Below are positions 4,905-35,662 of a stretch of 37,563 nt of DNA, in pieces. The notes beneath the pieces were generated by a model. It did not search any database, was not told the DNA's origin, and saw nothing but the letters and a program-made list of their open reading frames with translations. This stretch comes from Kofleriaceae bacterium (GTDB lineage Bacteria; Myxococcota_A; Polyangia; Haliangiales; Haliangiaceae). Location of the stretch: assembly GCA_044230415.1 (NCBI GenBank), contig JBGARE010000001.1:561195-598757 (forward strand), read 5' to 3'. Both the position numbers and the translations under genes were made by a program. The first letter of the stretch is position 1. Every line of letters begins with the position of its first letter.

Positions 4905-5687
4905 TCAGCGATCGTTGGAGCGATGGCGCCGCACGGGCACGAGCACCGGGCGCTTCGCGCTCTTGCCATCGCCGGTCGTTCGGCCGCGTAGCCGGCGCCA
5001 TGCCCACGGGGCGACGAAGCGCGCGATCCACGCGAGATCGGTGGCGAGCTCGTCGCGTCGACGGCGCCGCGGCATCGGCGCGGGCGGGTGCGAGAGTCCG
5101 GGCTCGACGTGCGGGATGTCGAGCATGAACGCGAGTTGCGCCGCGATGCGCGCGTGGCCCTCGGGGTTACCGTGCAGACGATCCACGGCCCACATGCGCG
5201 GATCGTGCGCGAGCTCGAACGACGCGAGATCGAGGAGCAGCGCACCCGCGCGTTCGGCTTCGTCGCGGATCGCGATGTTGAGATCGTGCGTGCGCACCGA
5301 AAGCGCGCGGCCGAGCTTCATCCGGCGGGACACGTCGGGGATCGTGAACGTGATCACCGTGGCGCCGACGCCGCGGAGCCCGCGCACCATCTCGCCGACG
5401 TGGCCGGCGACGCGCGTGGCGCTCCAGTTCGAGCGCAAGAGGTCGTTCATGCCGGCGACGACGGTCGCGAGATCGGGCCGCATCGCGATCGCGGGCGCGA
5501 GTTGTGTCGCGCTGATCTCGCCGGCGCTGCGACCACGCACCGCGAGGTTCGCGTAGGCGAGCGAGGGATTCTGGGACGCGACGTGCTCGGCGAGGCGATC
5601 GGCCCAGCCGCGATAGCCACCGTCGCCATCGGGATCATCGAGGCCTTCGGTGCTGCTGTCACCGAGGGCGACGTACCGCGAGAACAT
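4905..5687 (-). CDS. SGNH/GDSL family hydrolase (lipase/esterase-like)
   Basis: N-terminal block I motif YVALGDSSTEG, GMNDL, and C-terminal DRLHGNPEGH (block V DxxH). The Arg-rich C-terminal tail may be an over-extension. Confidence 0.7.
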   Translation of the reverse strand: MFSRYVALGDSSTEGLDDPDGDGGYRGWADRLAEHVASQNPSLAYANLAVRGRSAGEISATQLAPAIAMRPDLATVVAGMNDLLRSNWSATRVAGHVGEMVRGLRGVGATVITFTIPDVSRRMKLGRALSVRTHDLNIAIRDEAERAGALLLDLASFELAHDPRMWAVDRLHGNPEGHARIAAQLAFMLDIPHVEPGLSHPPAPMPRRRRRDELATDLAWIARFVAPWAWRRLRGRTTGDGKSAKRPVLVPVRRHRSNDR

Positions 5688-6983
5688 TCATCGACTATAG
5701 GCCGACCTCCGGCGGCGAACGAGCAGCAGGGCGGCGCAGACGAGGCCAGCGAGCGGGAATGGGGGGGACGACCCGCTCGAGCTGCAACCCGTGTCTGCGC
5801 CGCCGCTACCAGTGTTGCCGTTGGGGTCATCGGATCCGCCGTCGCCATCGCAGGTTCCGTTGCCGTCGCTATCGATGATGCATTGGCCGGACACGCAGTC
5901 CGCGCCGGACATGCAGCCCGTGCCCGGATCGCCCGGCATGTCACCGGGCATGTCGCCGGGATCGGGCGTGCCGTAGACGACATCGACGAACGCGGACGCC
6001 ATGTTGTTCGCGGCATCGAATCCCGTGACCTGCACGCGATGCGTGCCCTCGGCGAGCGTGGTGCCGGTGGTCCAGGTCCACGGCGCCGCCGTCTTCGTCC
6101 CGACGAGCGTTCCGTCGAGGCGCAGCTCTGCCTTCGCGACGGCGACGTTATCGGTGACCGTGGCGGTGACGGTGAAGCCCGGCGAGACCTGCGCGTTCGC
6201 TGCGGGCGAGCTGATCGCGACGACCGGCGCGGTCGTGTCGGGCACGTTCGCGCCGAACACCGCCATGATCAGCGCGTAGCTATTCATCTGCTGCGATCCG
6301 GTCTGCGCGTAGGTGCAGCTGCACTGGCGCGCGTTGTACTCGCCGCACGAACCGGCCGCGTTCTGGAACGCCTTCTGCGCGGGACCGGACTGGAGGTACG
6401 TCATCGGATCGCGGTTGTCGTACTTGTGATCGAGGCCCCACGAGTGCGCGGTCTCCTGCGCGACGGTCCAGCACAGATCCAAAATCGAGCTCGGCGCTTC
6501 GTTCGCGAACGTGAACGAGATCGCGTTCCCGATGTAGCCGCACGAGAACGGCGACACGCCGAGCACGCCGCTTTGCTGGCCTGCATTCGCGGCGCGCCCC
6601 GCGACGATCGCCATGTGATAGTTCGTACCGGCCGGGGGACGATCGGTGACGATCTGGACGTTGAACGGCGCGTACGTCTGCCGCACGCACGCGACGATCT
6701 GATTCCACTGCGCGGCGGTGCCCGTGTACGCGGGGATGTTCACCGCGCTGGTCACGATGCTCGAGCGATTGAGCGGCGCGTTGTTCTGACCGGGCGAGAG
6801 CTGACAGCCGCCGGCGCAGTTGTTCAGGTAGATGATGTTCGAGACCGTCGCCGCGACCGGCGGCTCCCACGTGCTGTGGACCAGCGACGGATCCGTCCAC
6901 TGGTACGTCGCGCGAGGTGCAGCGTGGGCGTTACCGATCGCTCCCGCGACCAGGAGCGCGATCCAGAGATGGCGGCGCGTCAT
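5688..6983 (-). CDS. Secreted multidomain protein: N-terminal metzincin-like domain (degenerate motif), Ig-like (Big) domain, Cys-rich repeat, and a C-terminal MYXO-CTERM-type sorting tail
   Basis: Signal peptide MTRRHLWIALLVAGAIGNAHAAP (start taken at the ATG at 6983; the ORF runs to 7037). QETAHSWGLDH resembles the HExxHxxGxxH motif with its first His replaced by Gln. The Ig-like segment reads TAPVVAISSPAANAQVSPGFTVTATVTD...RVQVTGFDAANN. The Cys-rich repeat reads CMSGADCVSGQCIIDSDGNGTC. The C-terminus GCSSSGSSPPFPLAGLVCAALLLVRRRR has the Cys, hydrophobic helix and Arg-cluster architecture of MYXO-CTERM. Confidence 0.65.
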   Translation of the reverse strand: MTRRHLWIALLVAGAIGNAHAAPRATYQWTDPSLVHSTWEPPVAATVSNIIYLNNCAGGCQLSPGQNNAPLNRSSIVTSAVNIPAYTGTAAQWNQIVACVRQTYAPFNVQIVTDRPPAGTNYHMAIVAGRAANAGQQSGVLGVSPFSCGYIGNAISFTFANEAPSSILDLCWTVAQETAHSWGLDHKYDNRDPMTYLQSGPAQKAFQNAAGSCGEYNARQCSCTYAQTGSQQMNSYALIMAVFGANVPDTTAPVVAISSPAANAQVSPGFTVTATVTDNVAVAKAELRLDGTLVGTKTAAPWTWTTGTTLAEGTHRVQVTGFDAANNMASAFVDVVYGTPDPGDMPGDMPGDPGTGCMSGADCVSGQCIIDSDGNGTCDGDGGSDDPNGNTGSGGADTGCSSSGSSPPFPLAGLVCAALLLVRRRRSAYSR

Positions 6984-9577: not shown

Positions 9578-10281
9578 GCCGACGCGACCACCGCGCGCTG
9601 CGCCACCGCGAGCTCGCGAATGCCGATCGCCGCGAGATCGAGCATCGCGTTCAGCTGACCGCGATCGAACGTCCCGTGCTCCGCGGTGCCTTGCACCTCG
9701 ATCAGCGTGCCGCTCTCGTCACCGACGACGTTCATGTCGACATCGGCCTTGCTGTCCTCGACGTACGGCAGATCGAGCACGCACTCGCCGTTGACGATGC
9801 CCACGCTGACCGCCGCGACCGGCGGCATCAGCGCGCTGCGATCGGCGAGCGTGCCCGCCTTGACGAGCTTCTCGATCGCGAGCGCGAGCGCGACCCACGC
9901 ACCGGTGATCGACGACACGCGCGTGCCGCCGTCCGCGCACAGCACGTCGCAATCGACGTTGATCGTGCGCTCGCCTAGCTTCTTCAGATCCACCGCCGCG
10001 CGCAGCGAGCGGCCGATCAGGCGCTGGATCTCCTTGCCGCGTCCGCCCGGATCGCGCTTGCTGCGCGTGTGCGTCGAGCGCGGGAGCATCGCGTACTCCG
10101 CCGTCAACCACCCCGAGCCCTTGCCCTTCATCCACGCGGGCACGGTCTCCTCGACGCTGGCGGCGCACAGCACCCACGTATCGCCGAGCTTGATGAGCGC
10201 GGATCCCTCCGCGTGCTTCTGGAAGTGCGGGATGATCTCGAGCGCACGGAGCTGATCGGGACGGCGGCCATCGAAACGCAT
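9574..10281 (-). CDS. rph: Ribonuclease PH
   Basis: [12 protein letters not shown]...[14 protein letters not shown]...[22 protein letters not shown] is the typical RNase PH sequence. Start taken at the ATG at 10281 (235 aa). The 547-aa ORF in the track is an upstream over-extension. Confidence 0.92.
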
Positions 10282-14697: not shown

Positions 14698-15849
14698 TTA
14701 CAGGCGCTTCGAAGAACGTGCAACTCGGCGAGATCGCTTGGATTGCGATCCATCGCGGCCCTCGTCGAGCGGACCCGGGCACACCTCGCGCAGTTTGCAG
14801 CGCGCGCACTCGCTGCCGCTCCACACGCGCTCGAACAGCGCCTGCACCTGATCGAGGAGCTGGGCGTCGTCGGTGATCATGCCGAGCTCGAAGTTCCGCT
14901 TGCCGCTGCCCTTCGCGCCCAACCCCGCGCCGGTCCAGTTCGCGCTGCCGAGATAGAGCAGCGAGCCGTCGACGATGACGGCCTTCATGTGGACGCGTGG
15001 ACATCGCGCGAGCTCGAGCCCGCGCAGCAATCGCGGATGCGCGGCGAGCTCCTCGCGAAACGGACCGCTCGGTAGCTCGGCGTGCAGTAGGCGCAGCTCG
15101 ACGCCGCGCGACGCGAGCTCGTCCAAGCGCGAGACCATCGAGACGTACGGCGTTTGCTTGCGCGAGCGACGCGCGCCCGGTCGCGCGCTGCCTTCGACCA
15201 TCATGCCCTTCACGTTGGCCGTCGCGATCCACACGCTGGTGTGCGCGGCCAACACGGCGGCGATCACGCGATCGTAGTGCGCGCGTCCGCCGACGATCTC
15301 GATGGTCACGGGCCGCGCGGGCAGATGCAGATCGAAGGGCTCGCTCTCGACGACATACGCATCGTCCGCCCGCTGCTTCGCCGATCGCGACGGTCCGCGC
15401 AGCGCGCGCTCGACCCGCGCGAGCGACGCTTCCGCGGAATCGGCGGTCGCCTTCGCCGTTCGCGTCGGCATGGCGCGGATCTTCTTCGCGACGCGCGCGA
15501 GGGAATCGGCGGCGACGAGCCCGTCGTTCGATGCGCGCGTGGCAGCGAGGTCATGGTTCGACGCCCGCGATGGCTTCGCGGCAAGGTCATTGTTCGACGA
15601 GGGCGATGGCTGCGCAGCGAGGTCATTGTTCGACGAGGGCGATGGCGCAGCGAGGTCATTGTTCGACGAGCGCGATACACGTTTGCTCGCGACGTTCTTC
15701 TTCCCCACGTTCTTCTTCGCGGTGTTCTTCTTCGTGGCGGTCTTCTTCGCGGCGGTCTTCTTCGCGGCGGTCTTCTTCGCGACCACGTCCGTCGGCGAAG
15801 TTCGCTCGTCGGATCCGTTCGTCGTATCGCGATCGACGTCGTCGCTCAC
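14698..15849 (-). CDS. Phospholipase D / Nuc-family protein with a single HKD motif, and an N-terminal Lys/Ala-rich histone-H1-like tail plus SSNNDLAA tandem repeats
   Basis: HMKAVIVDGSLLYLGSANWTGAGL is an HxK(x)4D(x)6GSxN catalytic motif, present once, as in Nuc-type dimeric endonucleases. N-terminal (KKTAA)n and (SSNNDLAAxPSP)x4 repeats. Candidate GTG start at 15849 overlaps the SDR stop in a GTGA junction. The track ORF (to 16113) over-extends into the SDR gene. Confidence 0.72.
   Translation of the reverse strand: MSDDVDRDTTNGSDERTSPTDVVAKKTAAKKTAAKKTATKKNTAKKNVGKKNVASKRVSRSSNNDLAAPSPSSNNDLAAQPSPSSNNDLAAKPSRASNHDLAATRASNDGLVAADSLARVAKKIRAMPTRTAKATADSAEASLARVERALRGPSRSAKQRADDAYVVESEPFDLHLPARPVTIEIVGGRAHYDRVIAAVLAAHTSVWIATANVKGMMVEGSARPGARRSRKQTPYVSMVSRLDELASRGVELRLLHAELPSGPFREELAAHPRLLRGLELARCPRVHMKAVIVDGSLLYLGSANWTGAGLGAKGSGKRNFELGMITDDAQLLDQVQALFERVWSGSECARCKLREVCPGPLDEGRDGSQSKRSRRVARSSKRL
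15534..15783. repeat. Two in-frame tandem repeat blocks inside the PLD-family gene: ~33-36-bp units x4 (15534-15669) and 15-bp gcggtcttcttcgcg-type units (15693-15783)
   Basis: Read directly: ...gaggtcattgttcgacgagggcgatggc... repeated; ...gtcttcttcgcggcggtcttcttcgcggcggtcttcttcgcg.... Confidence 0.7.
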
Positions 15850-17428: not shown

Positions 17429-18865
17429 ATGGTCGCACGCCAGGACATCGACGCGCTGCTCATCAGCGCCCTCTACGGCGAGCTCACGCCCGCTGAAGAG
17501 AAGAGCCTGGCGGCTCATCTCGAGTCGCATCCGGCTGACCGGACGGCGCTCGATGACCTGACCCGGGCTCGCGAGGTGCTTCACCAGAGCCGCATCCTCG
17601 CGTTCCAGTACGAGCCGCCACAGTCCGTGTCCGCCCTGCTGATGCAGGAAGCGTCGCGTCGCGCGCCCAAGAAGGCGTCCGAGGGCGAGGGCTGGTTCGC
17701 GCGGTTCGTGCGCTCGTTCGTGCAGCATCCCGCGATGGCCGCGGCCGCGATGATCTGCGTCGTTGTCGGCGCCGCATCGCTCGTGTCGCGCAACTCGGAA
17801 AAACAGTTCGCGGACACGCCCACCGTCGAGACGACGAAGCACACCGAATCTGCACCGGCCGTCGCCATGGAGGCGCCGACTCCGAACGCTGCGCCGGCTC
17901 CAGCGACAGGCACGGGAGACAACGCGGATCAATTTCGAGTCGCGCTCGCCGATGGCGAGAGCGAAGACAAGAGCGCCTACAAGAACGACGGCAAGGTCGA
18001 GGAAAAGAAGAAGGCCGAAGGGCAGACCAAAGCGCTGCCCGAGTCCGATCCGAACACAGCGTTCTACGACGCGAGCAACAACCGCAAAGGTGGCGACTCG
18101 CTGGCGACGAAGACCGCGACGGCCAAGCCGGACACGGGTCTCGAGCTGCGCCGTGGCGACGCGATGCCGAAGGACTTCGACGAGGCCAAGCCCGAACCGA
18201 CGCCCGCACCCACGGACGAGAAGCTCGCGAAACAAGCGCAGGCAGCCGCCGCGCAGAAGGCGAACAAGGCCGAGCGTCAGTTCGAAGCTGCCGACGACGC
18301 GATCGGTGGAGCTCGCGAGCAAGGATACGTCGCCGACAAACGCGAGGGCGCCGGCGCCGCCGGTGGCGTCGCACCGGGAGCAGCCGCACCGACCGCGCCG
18401 ACCACCACCGCGCAAGCGCCGCGCAATGCGGGGCCGCGCAACACCGTGGCACCCGCTCCGCCTCCGCCCACCAAGGCTGTTCCGCGCCAGGAGATCGCGA
18501 CGGACACCGCGACCGCATCGCGCGACCTGAAGTCGAAAGAGAAGGTCGCGAACGATCCGAACCTCGCGTGGGCGAAGGATCAACACGCGGCGCTCGTCAC
18601 CGCGGTACGCGCGAACAACTGCGGCCGCGCAGCAAGCATCGCACTGTCGATCGCGAATCGCACGCCCGCGTACTACGCGCAGAACGTCGAGACCGATCGC
18701 TCCGTGAAGGAGTGCATCGCGTACATCAACACCGAGCGCGAGAAGGACGCGGAACTTCGCGCATCGCGCGCGAAGAAGTCGCAGCTCAAGAATGCCGAGC
18801 CTGCCGCGCCGAAGCGCGCAGCGGATCAGCCGTCGAAGGCGACCTCGACGGACTCGTCGCGCTAG
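17429..18865 (+). CDS. Membrane-anchored protein with an anti-sigma-factor-like N-terminus, one TM helix and a long low-complexity (A/P/K/E-rich) periplasmic region
   Basis: N-terminal helical segment (DIDALLISALYGELTPAEEKSLAAHLESHPADRTALDDL) typical of anti-sigma N-domains. TM helix AMAAAAMICVVVGAASLV. No partner sigma gene lies adjacent. Confidence 0.45.
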   Translation: MVARQDIDALLISALYGELTPAEEKSLAAHLESHPADRTALDDLTRAREVLHQSRILAFQYEPPQSVSALLMQEASRRAPKKASEGEGWFARFVRSFVQHPAMAAAAMICVVVGAASLVSRNSEKQFADTPTVETTKHTESAPAVAMEAPTPNAAPAPATGTGDNADQFRVALADGESEDKSAYKNDGKVEEKKKAEGQTKALPESDPNTAFYDASNNRKGGDSLATKTATAKPDTGLELRRGDAMPKDFDEAKPEPTPAPTDEKLAKQAQAAAAQKANKAERQFEAADDAIGGAREQGYVADKREGAGAAGGVAPGAAAPTAPTTTAQAPRNAGPRNTVAPAPPPPTKAVPRQEIATDTATASRDLKSKEKVANDPNLAWAKDQHAALVTAVRANNCGRAASIALSIANRTPAYYAQNVETDRSVKECIAYINTEREKDAELRASRAKKSQLKNAEPAAPKRAADQPSKATSTDSSR

Positions 18866-19040
18866 TTCGACCGCATCGATTCGCTCGACGGACTCGTCGC
18901 GCTAGTTCGACCGCATCGATTCGCTCGATGGACTCGTCGCGCTAGTTCGACCGCATCGATTCGCTCGACGGACTCGTTCGACCGCATCGATTCGCTCGAC
19001 GGACTCGTCGCGCTAGCGCGGCCCCCGGGCTCGATCGACT
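18850..19040. repeat. 40-bp direct tandem repeat (ggactcgtcgcgctagttcgaccgcatcgattcgctcgac): 3 full copies, one copy with a 9-bp deletion, and a partial copy. The first copy contains the stop codon of the upstream gene.
   Basis: Read directly from the sequence. Copies lie at about 18850-18889, 18890-18929, 18930-18969, 18970-19000 and 19001-19017+. Located between convergent genes. Confidence 0.85.
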
Positions 19041-25202: not shown

Positions 25203-26732
25203 TCACTTTGCCTCCGCGATGATCGCGAGTAGGTCGGCGACGACGGTCTTCGAACGATACGCGACCACGCGGCGATCGCTCGTGCCCACGCTGTCGAGGC
25301 TCGCGTCGCGAGTCTCGTCGACGACCAGCACCACCCGATCGATTCCGGCGGCGCGATACCGCGCCAGCTTGGCCGTCAGGTACTCGGCGGTCGCGAAGCC
25401 GACGACCTCCACGAACCAACATCGGGAACGATCAGGCTCGTTCCTCGGCAGCGCTCCGGCGATCACGCGAGGCGCGATCCGATCTGCCTCGGCGGTCATC
25501 TGCGATGCGAGCAGTGCGGCGAGGTCGGGGATCAGATCGCGATCGTCTTCCAGGTCCTCCTCGCGGTTCGCTCCGCTAGCATTGCGGTTCGCTTCGCTAG
25601 CATTGCGGTTCGCTCCGCTGGCGTTGCGGTTCGCTCCGCTGGCGTCGCGGTTCGCTCCGCTGGCGTCGCGGTTCGGCTCGGTCCCGGAGACCGACGTCGG
25701 ACCGACGAGCTCGAGCGCGAGATCGGGAAACAGCCGATCGCTTGCGTGCGCGATCGGCGGTGGATCGAGCTCGACGAGCACATCGCGCACGCTGCCCATC
25801 GCGCTCGCGATCTTCGCCGCGATGCTGGGCCTCCCTCGTTCGTTCGTCGGCGCGGGTGGCAACAGAGCCGGCGATGTCACGCGGAGCGCGGCCATGCCGT
25901 AGCCGAAGTCCGCGTCGATCTCGACGACAAATCGGTCCAGTCCGGACAACAACGGCACGACCGCACCGAGCGACCGGCCATAGACGCTCGTCTGGTGGAA
26001 CAACGAGAGCGGCCCGACGATGTCGATGATGGTGTGGTCGCGTGTGGCGAGGGCATCGCGCGTGGTGAGGGCATCGCATGTGGCGAGTGCATCGCGTGCG
26101 GCGAATGCATCGCGCGTCCGCGCGGCCGAGACGCGCACGAGGAGCCCGTAGCGTGCAGCGGTGCGGATCAGCGGGTGCGCGTTGCCCCAGGCGTGGATGC
26201 GCACGTGCTTCGCGCGACGAAGTGCCCGCTGGATTCGATCCACGTTCGCGTACGCGGCGAGCCGGTGCTCCTCGGGCCGGCCACTCGGCAGCGTGACCGG
26301 GCGCTCGTCCGCGAGATCGATCCACAGCAGGCTCTCGATCTCGGAGGGCTCGATGCCGAGCTCGTCGCCCGCCTTCGCGAGGCGCTGCGTGCGCGAATCG
26401 TCGTCGAGCGCCGGTTGGCCGAGGACCGCAGCGCGCACCTTGCGCGCGACCTTCGTGCGCTGCGCGCGGCCGTCCATCATGCGGCGCATCGCGACGAGGA
26501 TCGCGGCCACGCGGACTCCGCGGATCGGCGAGTGATCGAGGCGCTCGCGCAACACGCGCCAGGGTTGGCCCACGCAGCTCATGACGTGGTCGAGCACGAT
26601 GGCGATCCACGGCAGATCGGTCGCGTCGTAGAGGCGGACATCGGTGGCCGCGGCCGCTTCGAGGAGCTCGAGCTCGTCGGTGTCATCGTCGTCATGGTGG
26701 CTCGCATCGGCGCGTACATCACGCGCGATCAC
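25203..26732 (-). CDS. DUF790-family (Bax1-like) putative endonuclease, partner of the XPB-like helicase; carries two internal tandem-repeat expansions
   Basis: Its size (~509 aa) and its position immediately downstream of an XPB-type helicase with an ATGA start/stop overlap, plus the C-terminal region CWFVEVVGFATAEYLTAKLARYRAAGIDRVVLVVDE, are consistent with the DUF790/Bax1 nuclease family. The family assignment is from my recollection of the family, not from a search. Confidence 0.65.
   Translation of the reverse strand: MIARDVRADASHHDDDDTDELELLEAAAATDVRLYDATDLPWIAIVLDHVMSCVGQPWRVLRERLDHSPIRGVRVAAILVAMRRMMDGRAQRTKVARKVRAAVLGQPALDDDSRTQRLAKAGDELGIEPSEIESLLWIDLADERPVTLPSGRPEEHRLAAYANVDRIQRALRRAKHVRIHAWGNAHPLIRTAARYGLLVRVSAARTRDAFAARDALATCDALTTRDALATRDHTIIDIVGPLSLFHQTSVYGRSLGAVVPLLSGLDRFVVEIDADFGYGMAALRVTSPALLPPAPTNERGRPSIAAKIASAMGSVRDVLVELDPPPIAHASDRLFPDLALELVGPTSVSGTEPNRDASGANRDASGANRNASGANRNASEANRNASGANREEDLEDDRDLIPDLAALLASQMTAEADRIAPRVIAGALPRNEPDRSRCWFVEVVGFATAEYLTAKLARYRAAGIDRVVLVVDETRDASLDSVGTSDRRVVAYRSKTVVADLLAIIAEAK
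25562..25676. repeat. 21-bp in-frame tandem repeat x5 (unit ~cgctccgctggcgttgcggtt) encoding (ASGANRN)n inside the DUF790 gene
   Basis: Read directly from the sequence, lines 25561-25680. Confidence 0.85.
26036..26117. repeat. 15-bp in-frame tandem repeat x5 (ggcgagggcatcgcg variants) encoding (RDALA/TCDALT)n inside the DUF790 gene
   Basis: Read directly: gcgtgtggcgagggcatcgcgcgtggtgagggcatcgcatgtggcgagtgcatcgcgtgcggcgaatgcatcgcg. Confidence 0.8.
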
Positions 26733-29938: not shown

Positions 29939-31561
29939 TCAGAGAAGAACGCCGCCGGTAGGCACACCGGCATCGGGCGCCGGCGGCGCGGGCTCGGCCG
30001 CGCTGCCTTCCTTCGGCGGCTCGACGGGCAACGCCACGCCGAGCGGCGCTGTCGACGTCGGCGTCTCCGACGGTGGCATCGGCGGGAACGCGACGGCGCC
30101 CTTCTCGCCACCCGGTCCTGCGCGCAGCTCGTCGGCGAGCCGGCGCGCGTGCATCGCCCACCCTTCGGCATCCGTGTTCGTGCGCGGCTTCTGCAGCGCC
30201 GCGGTGTCGAACTGCTTCGCGGCATCGGTCAGCGCGTCGGCGGCGGCGCGCAACCGAGCGGACGCGCGCCAGTAGGTGACGTCGCCGAGCAGCCGCTCGA
30301 GATCCTCGCGCTTCGTGATCCGATCGTTGTCCGAGGCGAGCCAGCGCGCGACGAGCAGCGCTTGCTTGAGCGCGGCTTCGGCTTCGTCGACCTTCGCGAC
30401 CGGATCCTCGGGGCCCGAGGCCGACGTCGGCGTCGACGTTCCGCCGCGTCCACCGACGAGCTTGGTCGCGCGCTCTTCGAGCATCTTCTCGAACCGCGCG
30501 GCGAGCTCGGCTTTGCTGTTCGTCTCGAACGGCGCGCACGGCGCCTCCGCCGGGATCTTCAGCGGCTTCCACTCCGCGCCGTCGAGGGAGCTCTCGCCCC
30601 ACGGCGGGAACGAGCGTCCCTGCAAGAGCACCACGCGATCCGCTTCGCACGCGATCAGGAAGCGCTCGCTGTTCGAGCGACCGACGAGCACCATCGTGGT
30701 GATCGTTCCGCCGAGCACCACCGCGAGCGCGGCGGCGAGCATCCACAGCTTGCTGCGCGGTCGCTCGCCATCGTCGCCGTCGTCGGTGGTCGCGCGCTTC
30801 TTCTTCGCCTTCTTCGCGGGTTTGTCGTCGGGGATCTGGGTCACCCCGACCGCATCGCGCAGCTCGTTCTCGACGACGATGGACGCGGGCGCAGGCGCGG
30901 CGAGGGCAGGCGCCTCTGTCCACGCGGGCTCGTCGGGCGGCGCTTGGTAGGCAGGCTCCGGCGCGTCGTAGGCCGGCTCGGGTTCGTACGCGGACGCGTC
31001 GAACGGGACGATGGGTGCCTCGTGCTCGCCGGTGACCCGAGGCGTGAACGCGGAGGGAGGCAGCGGCGCGGCGGGCTCCGGCTGTATCGATGGCGCGGCA
31101 ACGGACGTCGGCGTGGGTGTCGATACGGTCGCCCTCGCGCTCGTCGGTGGGGTCGGCGTCGGGACAGCGGACGCGGGCGTCGATGCCGTGGGCTTCGATG
31201 CGGGCGTCGGCGCAGTCGTCGATGCGGTGACTGCGGGTGTCGGCGCGGTCGTCGATGCGGTCGGCGTGGATGTCGATACGGTCGCCGGCGCAGTCGTCGA
31301 TGCGGTCGTCGGCGCAGTCGTCGATGCGGTGGCTGCGGGTGTCGGCGCAGTCGTCGATGCGGTCATCGGCGCAGTCGTCGATGCGGTGGCTGCGGGTGTC
31401 GGCGCAGTCGTCGATGCGGTCGGCGTCGGGACCGGCGTCGATGCGGTCGGCGTGCTCGTCGATGAGGACTCGCGCGAGGTCTTTCCCGTCAGGGTCTCGG
31501 CCAGCGGCAGCGGCGCGAACGGATCGCGCCGCGGTGGCTTCTTGTCATCGTCTCGCGTCAC
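29939..31561 (-). CDS. Single-pass membrane protein with an N-terminal Thr/Ala/Ser/Pro-rich tandem-repeat region
   Basis: (TASTTAPTPAA)-like units in ~10 copies, a Lys-rich patch (KPAKKAKKKR), TM helix LWMLAAALAVVLGGTITTMVLVG, and a C-terminal domain of ~250 aa without known motifs. Its start overlaps the diguanylate cyclase stop by 4 nt. Confidence 0.55.
   Translation of the reverse strand: MTRDDDKKPPRRDPFAPLPLAETLTGKTSRESSSTSTPTASTPVPTPTASTTAPTPAATASTTAPMTASTTAPTPAATASTTAPTTASTTAPATVSTSTPTASTTAPTPAVTASTTAPTPASKPTASTPASAVPTPTPPTSARATVSTPTPTSVAAPSIQPEPAAPLPPSAFTPRVTGEHEAPIVPFDASAYEPEPAYDAPEPAYQAPPDEPAWTEAPALAAPAPASIVVENELRDAVGVTQIPDDKPAKKAKKKRATTDDGDDGERPRSKLWMLAAALAVVLGGTITTMVLVGRSNSERFLIACEADRVVLLQGRSFPPWGESSLDGAEWKPLKIPAEAPCAPFETNSKAELAARFEKMLEERATKLVGGRGGTSTPTSASGPEDPVAKVDEAEAALKQALLVARWLASDNDRITKREDLERLLGDVTYWRASARLRAAADALTDAAKQFDTAALQKPRTNTDAEGWAMHARRLADELRAGPGGEKGAVAFPPMPPSETPTSTAPLGVALPVEPPKEGSAAEPAPPAPDAGVPTGGVLL
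31110..31470. repeat. ~33-bp in-frame tandem repeats (gtcgtcgatgcggtggctgcgggtgtcggcgca variants) encoding the T/A/P-rich region
   Basis: Read directly from the sequence, lines 31141-31440. Confidence 0.8.
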
Positions 31562-33159: not shown

Positions 33160-34671
33160 ATGGTCGCTGGTGTGCCCGATCTCGACTCGCAGCTAGGGCA
33201 GCTGCTGGGTGAGACGACGACGGAGATCGACGTCCCGCGGAAGAACCGAGTGTTCTGCAATCGGAACCTCCGCATGGACTCGATCGAGATGATCGGGTTC
33301 GACATGGACTACACGCTCGCGCTGTACCACCAGGACAAGCTCGAGCAGCTGTCGATCGAGCTAACGCTGCGAAAGCTGATCGAGAAGCACGGCTACCCCG
33401 AAGAGATCCGCACCCTGACCTACGACCCCAAGTGGGCGATCCGCGGCGTGATGGTGGATCGCAGGCTCGGCAACGTGTTCAAGCTCGATCGTCACAGTTA
33501 CGTGGGGCGCTGCTACCACGGCTTCCGCGAGCTCTCGCAGGACGAGCGCAAGGCGATCTATCGCCACGAGAAGGTCAACCTCTCCGACGATCGCTGGGAG
33601 TGGATCGACACGCTGTTCGGCCTCCCCGAGGCCGTGATGTTCACCACGATGGTGAACTGGGCCGAGAAGCGCACCGGCACCGTCGATTACGACAAACTGT
33701 TCGGTGATATCCGCACCGCGATCGATGAAGCGCATCGCGACGACACGCTCAAGTCCGTGATCAAAGCGGATCTCGCGAGCTACATCGTCAAGGATCCGCT
33801 GCTCGGCGAGACGCTGCACAAGTTCCGCAGCTCCGGCAAGAAGCTGTTCCTCCTGACCAACTCGCTCTACGACTATACGACCGTCGTGATGAGCTACCTG
33901 CTCGACGGCGAGCGCAAAGCGTATCCGTCGTGGCGCAACTACTTCGACATCGTCATCGTCGGTGGTGCGAAGCCCGCGTTCTTCAACGAGCTGCGCCCGT
34001 TCGTACAGGTCGATCAGCAGACGATGCAGCCGATGACGAACGGCGAGATCAAGCACTTGTCGCGCGACAAGGTCTATCAGGGCGGAAACGTCGTCGCGTT
34101 CGAGCAGATGACGGGCATCAAAGGCGAGCACGTCCTCTACATCGGCGATCACATCTACGGCGACATCCTGCGCCTGCGCAAACAGCACATGTGGCGGACG
34201 GCGATGGTGCTACAGGAGCTCGAGCGCGAGATCAGCGTCAGCGATCGGCTCGAGGCGCAGATCCAGGATCTCGAGCTACTCGATCGCCGCCACCGCAACC
34301 TCGAGAGCGAGATCGATTACCAGACGCTGCGGCTCAAGAAGATCCAGCGCCTGATCGACGACGAAGGCACGGTCGCGACGCTGCGATCGCGGCTCGAGGA
34401 GGAGCGCCGCGTCACCCGCGCGAGCGTGGACTCGTTGCGCGATCGCGCGGGCCTGATGGACGCCGAGGTCGACTCGCTCGAGGCGCGGATCGATCGCGCG
34501 TACAACTCGCACTGGGGTTCGTGCTTGCGCGAGGGCAACGAGAACTCGCGGTTCGGCGAGCAAGTGAACGACTACGCGGACCTGTACACGTCCCGCGTGT
34601 CGAACTTCGGCCCGTACTCGCCGCTGCGCTACTTCCGTGCGCCGCGCCGCCCGATGCCGCACGAAGTCTAA
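33160..34671 (+). CDS. Cytosolic 5'-nucleotidase, HAD-superfamily cN-II (IMP/GMP-specific) type
   Basis: [27 protein letters not shown] (HAD motif I DMDYT in cN-II context), plus downstream LLTNS and GDHIYGDI motifs. TACAAT at 33146-33151 lies 8 nt from the ATG. Confidence 0.85.
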
Positions 34672-34674
34672 GGG

Positions 34675-34753
34675 CAATGCCGCTCACGTAGCGTGCACGT
34701 GCACGTGTCCCCGGTGTGCCACGTGCACGATCGACCTTAACTGAGCGGCATCG
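34675..34753. mobile_element. 79-bp MITE-like palindromic element with ~10-bp terminal inverted repeats (ATGCCGCTCA / TGAGCGGCAT), flanked by 10-bp direct repeats AGTCTAAGGG (34665-34674 and 34754-34763). It could instead be a complex bidirectional terminator.
   Basis: Read directly. The interior contains the 12-bp palindrome gtgcacgtgcac and further CACGTG-type self-complementary runs. Each direct repeat contains the stop codon of one of the convergent flanking genes. Confidence 0.35.
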
Positions 34754-34756
34754 AGT

Positions 34757-35662
34757 CTAAGGGTGCACCGAGTAGTAGAGGCGGCCGGTGCCGTCTCGAT
34801 CGGACCAGAAGACGAGTGTCTTGCCGTCGGGCGAGATCCACGGATCCTGATCGCTCTGCGGAGAGTTGATCTCGGTCATCGCGACCGGTGCATCGAACGG
34901 CACCGTCGCAGACACGCGCTTCGCACAATAGATGTCGTGCTGGACGCTGACGCGCTGCGAATCGAAGCAGATGGTGAGCTTGTTGGCGCTGAGGAACGCG
35001 CTGCCGTCGTGCATGGTCGTGTTGAGCTCGGTCTCGAGGACGGGGGTGCTCCACGGATCCGACGGTGTCGTGCGGGTGCTGATGTAGATGTCCGATGTAC
35101 CGGCGAGCGGGTTGCGGGTCATCGCGAGCATCAGACGATCGTCGGAGATCGAGGCGCACTGATCGTGATCCGTGGTGTTGAGCTCGTTCATCGTGACCGG
35201 CGTGGTCCAGCTCTGTGACCCGCCGTCCCACGTCGAGATGTACAGGTCGTTGTTTCCGACCGAGCGCGCGAACGTCATCACGAGTCCGTTGGACGACACT
35301 TCGGGGGTGGTCTCGGCACTCAGCGACGACAGCTCGGCGACCTTCGTCGCAGCTCCGAAGCTCGTGGCGATGCTCGCGCGTGTCGCGTGGAAGATGTCGC
35401 CGTTCAGATCGAACCAGATCTGCAGCAGGTCGCCGGTCAGCGTCGGATCGTCGACGTTGCTGATGCCGAGGTACTGCGGCGTGCTCCAACCGGCGGTCGT
35501 GATGTCCGGTGCCGGACCATCGGTCGGCGCGTCGTCGACGATCTCTCCGTCGGAGCCGCTTCCATCGCTACCCGTCGCGTCGATGCTCGATCCGGTATTG
35601 ATCGAGAAGCCGCAGGCACCGAGCGCGAGCACGACAAGCGACAGCGATCGACACCCGAGCAC
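34757..35662 (-). CDS. Lipoprotein with WD40-like beta-propeller (PD40/TolB-like) repeats
   Basis: Lipobox LALGAC. A D/G/S-rich linker. Repeated PD40-type segments (LYISTWDG..., DIYISTRTTPSDPWSTP, PWISPDGKTLVFWSDRDG). Confidence 0.72.
   Translation of the reverse strand: MLGCRSLSLVVLALGACGFSINTGSSIDATGSDGSGSDGEIVDDAPTDGPAPDITTAGWSTPQYLGISNVDDPTLTGDLLQIWFDLNGDIFHATRASIATSFGAATKVAELSSLSAETTPEVSSNGLVMTFARSVGNNDLYISTWDGGSQSWTTPVTMNELNTTDHDQCASISDDRLMLAMTRNPLAGTSDIYISTRTTPSDPWSTPVLETELNTTMHDGSAFLSANKLTICFDSQRVSVQHDIYCAKRVSATVPFDAPVAMTEINSPQSDQDPWISPDGKTLVFWSDRDGTGRLYYSVHP

Follow-up and report, generated by a model that had tools for sequence, protein, structure and literature searches.

A 79-bp noncoding segment separates the convergent genes for a HAD-IG 5'-nucleotidase and a PD40-repeat putative lipoprotein in a 37,563-nucleotide stretch of contig JBGARE010000001.1 from a Kofleriaceae bacterium (the whole stretch is called the window below). 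The segment lies between two copies of a 10-bp sequence, its ends resemble those of insertion sequences (ISs) of the IS4 subgroup, and the closest relative of the organism carries the exact empty site. We conclude that the insert very likely originates from IS4-type transposition. We further propose that it is a nonautonomous derivative of an IS4-subgroup IS, of the MITE (miniature inverted-repeat transposable element) type, which probably moved as a miniature element.

We examined the layout of the junction, which reads ...CCGCACGA AGTCTAAGGG (79 bp) AGTCTAAGGG TGCACCGAG.... An earlier note on this DNA, made from the sequence alone, had reported that the 10-mer AGTCTAAGGG brackets the 79-bp segment and that its two copies supply the stops of the two genes. 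The sequence bears out the two copies (Table 1), and the open reading frames (ORFs) indeed place the TAA stop of the nucleotidase gene at 34669-34671 and the CTA stop of the lipoprotein gene at 34757-34759. Thus, the nucleotidase gene still ends in GTC TAA, in the left copy, and CTA AGG GTG of the lipoprotein gene is kept in the right one. The window contains exactly these two copies of the 10-mer, and the chance expectation from dinucleotide shuffles is none. Exact 10-bp direct repeats as such are common in the window, which has a G+C content of 68%: we counted 102 that are at most 120 nt apart, versus ~23 in Markov-1 simulations. The duplication is therefore without significance by itself in this GC-rich window, and it becomes significant because it is exactly juxtaposed with IS4-type termini and because relatives have empty sites, as described below. 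Taken with this evidence, the 10-bp repeat is supported as a target-site duplication that directly adjoins terminal inverted repeats.

We then analyzed the segment itself, which starts with CAATGCCGCTCA and finishes, on the plus strand, with TGAGCGGCATCG. An inverted-repeat search agreed with the earlier description of its ends as inverted repeats and of its interior as made up of palindromes of the CACGTG type, one of which is the perfect 12-mer GTGCACGTGCAC (34693-34704). The perfect inverted repeats ATGCCGCTCA (34677-34686) and TGAGCGGCAT (34742-34751) can be extended to the ends of the segment, where they form the 12-nt pair CAATGCCGCTCA and CGATGCCGCTCA with a single mismatch (11 of 12 positions, 10 of them in a perfect block), so that the terminal inverted repeats stand at the very ends, as they do in MITEs. 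Inside the termini, two more 10-nt blocks, CGTGCACGTG and CACGTGCACG, form another inverted pair, and the whole element is one long imperfect palindrome with arms of 33 and 34 nt and a loop of 12 nt. Structure prediction accordingly gave one long hairpin on both strands, with folding energies of -37.6 kcal/mol for the plus strand (z score, -3.8) and -43.5 kcal/mol for the minus strand (z score, -5.4), and none of 200 shuffled sequences folded as well in either case. The segment has no coding capacity, with stops in five of the six frames and a longest open frame of 26 codons. Its size falls in the range of bacterial MITEs (~50 to 1000 bp, with bacterial examples below 200 bp; PMC4596501 and PMC2229807).

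The ends of the element were compared with those of IS4 from Escherichia coli K-12, TAATGCCAGTCAGTTAAG and TAATGCCGATCAGTTAAG, which are flanked by a 12-bp duplication. The right end, CGATGCCGCTCAGTTAAG, agrees with E. coli IS4 at 16 of 19 positions in the exact terminal register, and the left end, CAATGCCGCTCACGTAGC, at 13 of 19 (both by manual, position-by-position count). We retrieved eight further IS4-subgroup elements, covering five phyla, by a tblastn search of a plasmid collection with the IS4 transposase, and we located their ends computationally. They come from Serratia, E. coli, Ralstonia, Klebsiella, Deinococcus, two Streptomyces, and Acaryochloris. The ends of the subgroup gave the consensus CAATGCCGTTCAGTTAAG, and four of the eight elements showed a flanking duplication, of 11 bp in the E. 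coli plasmid and of 10 bp in both Streptomyces and in Acaryochloris. From these eight elements and IS4, i.e., nine unrelated members of the subgroup, we built a position weight matrix (PWM), which was run over the 75,092 positions of the two strands of the window. The two top scores, 21.97 and 14.08 bits, correspond to the termini of the element, which are oriented outward and directly adjoin the duplication; the third-ranking score was 11.9, with a mean of -19.9 and a standard deviation of 6.8 over the scan. None of 300 simulated windows reached 21.97 bits, and none contained a convergent pair of sites of at least 14 bits. The same matrix found no site of 12 bits or more in the corresponding loci of the relatives.

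The ends also fit the published description of the subgroup, whose members have the terminal signature -AATR--------WTW----, with a relaxed first base, and direct repeats of 10 to 13 bp (PMC2266710). By our own count against Table 1 of that study, the left end of the element (C AAT G ........ G T A) and the right end (C GAT G ........ T T A) each agree with the subgroup at six of the seven positions, and the 10-bp duplication is within the range. The proposal in the earlier note that the insert is MITE-like has thus held and can be made specific, since the termini are of the IS4-subgroup type and the length of the duplication is within the range reported for it. In the IS4 family, a single ORF encodes a DDE transposase that has a YREK motif. 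The element lacks any ORF, and we therefore regard it as a derivative of the IS4 family and not as an IS.

We then looked at the same junction in relatives. Homologs of the nucleotidase are labeled Kofleriaceae or Myxococcota, and the C terminus ...PMPHEV is kept in most of the closest relatives listed. In the closest one, P0124, which is represented by five assemblies from JGI, NCBI, and ENA (L132 to L136), the nucleotidase protein is 98% identical and the DNA of the left flank is 94.3% identical to the window. The P0124 junction, ...CCGCACGAAGTCTAAGGGTGCACGGAGT..., has a single AGTCTAAGGG that is followed directly by TGCAC, as in the right flank of the window. The empty site is GAAGTCTAAGGGTGCAC in all five assemblies (in context, ...CCGCACGAAGTCTAAGGGTGCAC...), and the two stops overlap there as CTAA, which is exactly the site that the earlier note had predicted by collapsing the duplication. 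The 10-mer is therefore present twice in the window and once, between the same flanks, in P0124, as for the target-site duplication of a bacterial MITE. The comparison extends to two other relatives that lack the insert. In L010 (95% identity of the nucleotidase protein), the junction is GAGGTCTGA G TCACGGGTGCAG, with one base between the stops, and the lipoprotein ortholog ends in LYFSLHP-stop, similar to LYYSVHP-stop in the window; in L009 (94% identity), the junction is GAAGTCTAG CTACTGATAGAA and the stops abut. The exact empty site in P0124 and the compact junctions in L010 and L009 show that the lineage of the window gained the 89 additional bases by insertion and that this state is the derived one. 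Precise excision in P0124 would be a less parsimonious cause of the empty site, since the two further relatives also have no insert.

The neighborhood of the site varies in other ways. In L132 (positions 5513 to 5697) and likewise in L133 to L136, the body of the PD40 gene has been lost (~720 bp, corresponding to 34774-35495 of the window), leaving a remnant of 185 nt that keeps the last codons and the end of the signal peptide; the gene is thus dispensable in the P0124 lineage, as its body is deleted there. Across L009, L010, L011, L013, and L132, the region 3' of the nucleotidase gene has the PD40 gene present, deleted, or absent or has a Laminin_G_3 gene instead, and this junction is a hot spot of rearrangement among the Kofleriaceae relatives.

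The insert was found in ten contigs of the ENA and Logan assemblies (L001 to L008, L149, and L150, with L149 being the same contig as L001), and every contig that reaches the junction has the 79 bp. The identical nucleotidase protein is encoded on eleven contigs from these two sources and in one NCBI assembly. The 79 bp are 100% identical in nine of the ten contigs, two of which end inside the element. The tenth, L150 (positions 9687 to 9765; sample ERZ27258454), has a single nucleotide polymorphism (SNP), G>T at window position 34713, which is in the apical loop and leaves the stems unchanged. Six contigs have an identical full insert together with both flanks, and a seventh differs only by the SNP in the loop; these contigs come from different samples and assemblers. 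Three of the eight contigs of the population stop within the element or at its edge (L005 at 34743, L006 at 34754, and L008 at 34712). A repeat could cause such ends, as could the hairpin, low coverage, or heterogeneity of the strains, and these ends are what one would cite in favor of a chimeric or hairpin-induced misassembly. Given that ten contigs carry the insert across independent assemblies, we rejected an assembly artifact, to which we assign next to no chance.

We propose the following scenario, in which the chemistry of integration is taken from that of the family. An IS4-type DDE transposase, supplied in trans, would have bound both IS4-like termini and linked them to the target, whose strands would have been cut with a 10-bp stagger, and repair of the gaps would have duplicated AGTCTAAGGG. 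The target would have been the very point where the convergent nucleotidase and lipoprotein genes overlapped their stops as CTAA. Since the whole CTAA overlap is inside the duplicated 10 bp, each gene keeps an intact stop and C terminus. Neither flanking protein is altered by the insertion, which was probably close to neutral. Where the two genes overlapped before, 85 nt now separate them, and a strong hairpin (about -38 to -44 kcal/mol) is predicted in the 3' untranslated region of each. One may conjecture that the hairpin affects termination or mRNA stability, as has been discussed for ERIC-type elements (PMC2229807).

We searched for further copies of the element and for a parent IS in several collections. 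No second copy was present in the 37.5-kb window, in 7 kb of additional flank, or in ~90 kb of the relatives' loci. In JGI metagenomes, which do not include the source species, an exact search with the left-end 20-mer returned two chance matches in unrelated low-GC, eukaryote-like contigs, and a comparison of the six-frame translation with called proteins (~15 billion sequences, in which intergenic copies are invisible) gave no match. A pattern made of both 10-nt inverted repeats with a gap of 40 to 70 nt was scanned against a collection of genome contigs; the matches listed comprised at least 117 unrelated hairpins or coding segments and included no related interior, no Kofleriaceae, and not the source locus. 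The right-end 16-mer had one match in IMG/VR, which is an ordinary phage terminator hairpin that shares the stem, and blastn of the right end against plasmids yielded chance matches only. With InsG as the query, tblastn detected no transposase in the window, in the neighboring 7 kb, or in the relatives' loci. A profile of nine IS4-subgroup transposases likewise did not reveal a cognate Kofleriaceae enzyme; the best 120 hits came from Actinomycetes or were related to the seed sequences. Taken together, these searches have little power to detect a low-copy family, since JGI lacks the source species and the protein search does not see intergenic copies. Even so, they make a high-copy family in well-sampled relatives unlikely. 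As a separate observation, genomes of Intrasporangium spp. (L016, L017, L044, L050, L051, L064, L077, L080, and L092) contain a multicopy, G+C-rich palindromic repeat of 60 to 61 nt with the same 10-nt termini, ATGCCGCTCA...TGAGCGGCAT. The interior of this repeat is unrelated to that of the element, and the repeat may represent a small family of its own.

Several of these results weigh against a mobile miniature element: no second copy turned up in the window, its flanks, the relatives' loci, the metagenomes, or the called proteins, no cognate transposase was recovered by the profile, and a score of 14 bits like that of the left terminus was reached in 47 of the 300 simulated windows, if never as part of a convergent pair. 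The alternative that profits most is a relic decayed in place, in which a full IS4-subgroup IS (~1.4 to 1.6 kb) inserted at the overlap of the stops, made the 10-bp duplication, and later lost its interior by deletion while both ends stayed; the 79 bp would then never have moved as a unit. This history is equally compatible with the duplication, the IS4-type ends, and the empty site, no search recovered a second 79-bp copy, and the DNA divergence of ~6% from the relative with the empty site would have left time for two events. On the other hand, two events are needed instead of one, no fragment of a transposase is left, and the remnant is almost wholly palindromic, with the second inverted pair CGTGCACGTG and CACGTGCACG, whereas the two ends of the full E. 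coli IS4 have no similarity to each other, and no palindromic symmetry, past the first ~18 nt. In our judgment, a near-complete palindrome would more readily be expected in a miniature element than in a decayed IS. The palindromic build thus favors a true miniature element and the absence of other copies favors a relic, and we regard decay in place as possible but less likely than movement of the element as a 79-bp unit. We infer that this movement was catalyzed by an IS4-type transposase acting in trans.

Explanations that do without a transposase fare worse. Filler DNA captured during end joining at a staggered break, or template switching or slippage from local sequence, could leave a direct repeat as a by-product; local copying can be imagined because the 9-nt motif CGATGCCGC in the 3' end of the nucleotidase gene equals the outer 9 nt of the right terminus, and short-range, exact 10-bp direct repeats are common in the window. 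Yet both ends match the IS4-subgroup consensus in exact register, well past the 9 shared nucleotides, the simulations reproduced neither the score of the right end nor the convergent pair, and a 10-bp stagger is a hallmark of IS4-family integration (PMC2266710), all of which makes such an origin improbable. Still less credible is that the segment evolved, or was conserved, in place as an intrinsic terminator or a REP/REPIN-like repeat; the fallback in the earlier note, a REP-like structured terminator, was such a reading. The strong hairpin on both strands, the location between convergent genes, and a GTAG tetranucleotide that we read upstream of the inner palindrome would suit it, but as an origin it is contradicted by the exact empty site in relatives and by the flanking duplication. 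To our knowledge, HUH-type (RAYT) mobilization makes no target duplication. Moreover, a scan of both strands for intrinsic terminators found no T-run and no terminator-like site (nor was a promoter consensus found), an Rfam scan to an E value of 10 gave no match apart from one meaningless hit, and no other copy exists in the 37.5 kb, where a REP family would usually be dense. The hairpin could nevertheless act secondarily on transcripts. An attC-like site was also considered and rejected by inspection, because it has an imperfect GTTRRRY core and because recombination at attC is not known to leave a duplication.

Compared with known systems, the element is closest to the IS4 subgroup of De Palmenaer, Siguier and Mahillon (2008; PMC2266710), which it resembles in the right end (CGATGCCGCTCAGTTAAG, versus TAATGCCGATCAGTTAAG in IS4), in six of seven signature positions at each end, in the variable first base, and in the length of the duplication. 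It differs from IS4 in its size (79 bp versus 1400 to 1650 bp), in the lack of a transposase gene, without which it cannot move alone, and in its host, a Kofleriaceae myxobacterium. A second parallel is RUP of Streptococcus pneumoniae and its partner IS630-Spn1 (Delihas, PMC2229807). Like RUP, the element is noncoding and shorter than 200 bp, has IS-like terminal inverted repeats and a target duplication typical of the family, is intergenic, and forms a long stem-loop, and in both cases the link to a transposase is deduced from the similarity of the ends, together with the length of the duplication. Unlike RUP, of which there are ~108 dispersed copies, the element is known from one copy, is G+C rich (63%), and lacks TA ends; bacteria typically carry 10 to 20 copies of a MITE (PMC4596501). 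The element shares with REP/REPIN and ERIC-type hairpins a palindromic sequence, a location at gene 3' ends or between convergent genes, and a plausible effect on the 3' ends of transcripts. It departs from them by its 10-bp duplication and DDE-type IS ends and because no family of copies was found; REPs and REPINs, which have an associated RAYT gene, are not known to make a duplication and have many copies, and here we see a duplication and a single copy in the window. A nonautonomous relative within the IS4 family is MIC231, which derives from IS231 in the Bacillus cereus group. Like the element, MIC231 has IS4-family ends and is presumed to be mobilized in trans; unlike it, MIC231 belongs to the IS231 subgroup with its CAT ends, is of larger size, and in many cases contains passenger genes. 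We thus view the element as a further case of the known bacterial miniature transposons, clean but ordinary.

Table 1. Features at the junction of the nucleotidase and lipoprotein genes (window coordinates)
Feature	Position	Strand	Description
HAD-IG 5'-nucleotidase gene	33160-34671	+	ORF; Pfam PF05761, E value 5.6e-156; last codons GAA GTC TAA in the left duplication copy
CGATGCCGC motif	34652-34660	+	9 nt; P-M-P-H codons of the nucleotidase gene; equals the outermost 9 nt of the right end of the element
Left copy of the target-site duplication, AGTCTAAGGG	34665-34674		Carries the TAA stop of the nucleotidase gene; single copy in the L132 to L136 empty site
Miniature element, noncoding	34675-34753		79 bp, 63% G+C; one long imperfect hairpin; absent from L132 to L136, L010, and L009
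Left IS4-type terminus, CAATGCCGCTCACGTAGC	34675-34692	+	PWM score 14.08 bits, second best of 75,092 positions; first 12 nt are the left terminal inverted repeat
Inner hairpin	34692-34729		Stems CGTGCACGTG(CACGTG), 34692-34707, and CACGTGCACG, 34720-34729; apical loop 34708-34719
Right IS4-type terminus, CGATGCCGCTCAGTTAAG	34736-34753	-	PWM score 21.97 bits, best in the window; outer 12 nt are the right terminal inverted repeat
Right copy of the target-site duplication, AGTCTAAGGG	34754-34763		Stop and last two codons of the lipoprotein gene (CTA on the plus strand, TAG on the minus strand)
PD40-repeat (beta-propeller) putative lipoprotein gene	34757-35662	-	ORF; Pfam PD40, E value 6e-13; C terminus ...LYYSVHP-stop

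The lipoprotein assignment comes from the N terminus, which we read as a signal peptide with a lipobox-like motif (LALGAC); in other assemblies (L001), the start of the gene is called later, giving a protein of 291 aa. Elsewhere in the window, tandem repeat arrays with periods of 15 to 57 nt are present at 15542-15781, 18844-19016, 25563-25675, and 31199-31464. By its coordinates, the last of these arrays appears to be in the gene upstream of a GGDEF gene, and the length of the product of that upstream gene varies among relatives (540, 521, 477, 434, and 424 aa).

The choice of the target deserves comment. The motif CGATGCCGC, detected by the inverted-repeat search, is only 4 nt upstream of the duplicated target, and it was already there in the empty-site relatives L132 and L009 and, with one mismatch, in L010; its placement has a chance probability of ~0.003 by a rough post hoc estimate, and it may possibly have served as a cue for target choice. 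Among the three other 10-bp duplications, two have a central CTAG, that of Streptomyces NBC_00984 (L145), CCCCTAGCGG, and that of Acaryochloris (L147), ATCTCTAGAC, and the third, ACCTGGCACA, does not; the target described here has CTAA where those have CTAG. Two targets are located in short palindromes, the 11-bp CCCGCTTCGCG(GG) of the E. coli plasmid and the site in Streptomyces NBC_00868, which is within TGCCACCTGGCA. Some members of the IS4 subgroup show a striking specificity for target arms (PMC2266710). The CTAG duplications, the end-like motif, and the target-arm specificity hint at a bolder reading, and none of them amounts to evidence for it. In this reading, the element would be one member of a low-copy and still active MITE family of Kofleriaceae, moved by an undescribed IS4-subgroup transposase that prefers 10-mers centered on CTAG or CTAA and is possibly helped by the end-like motif in the target arm, an idea that we consider unlikely. 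Such 10-mers would be found mostly at stop codons in genomes of 68% G+C, and the elements, if the idea were true, would then land preferentially on gene ends, where they would serve convergent genes as portable, bidirectional insulators of the hairpin type.

Views on how such elements work are unchanged by this case. What it provides is a documented natural transposition, with a filled site, an exact empty site in a sister lineage, and ends that name the IS subgroup, and the presence or absence of the insert is a marker by which two closely related lineages of Kofleriaceae can be told apart. The case also illustrates how a 10-bp duplication permits insertion into overlapping stops without a change to either protein, turning an overlapping convergent pair into a pair separated by a strong predicted hairpin. 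In a limited literature search, we found no description of MITEs in myxobacteria. The element may thus add an IS4-derived miniature element to this group, in which few have been described.

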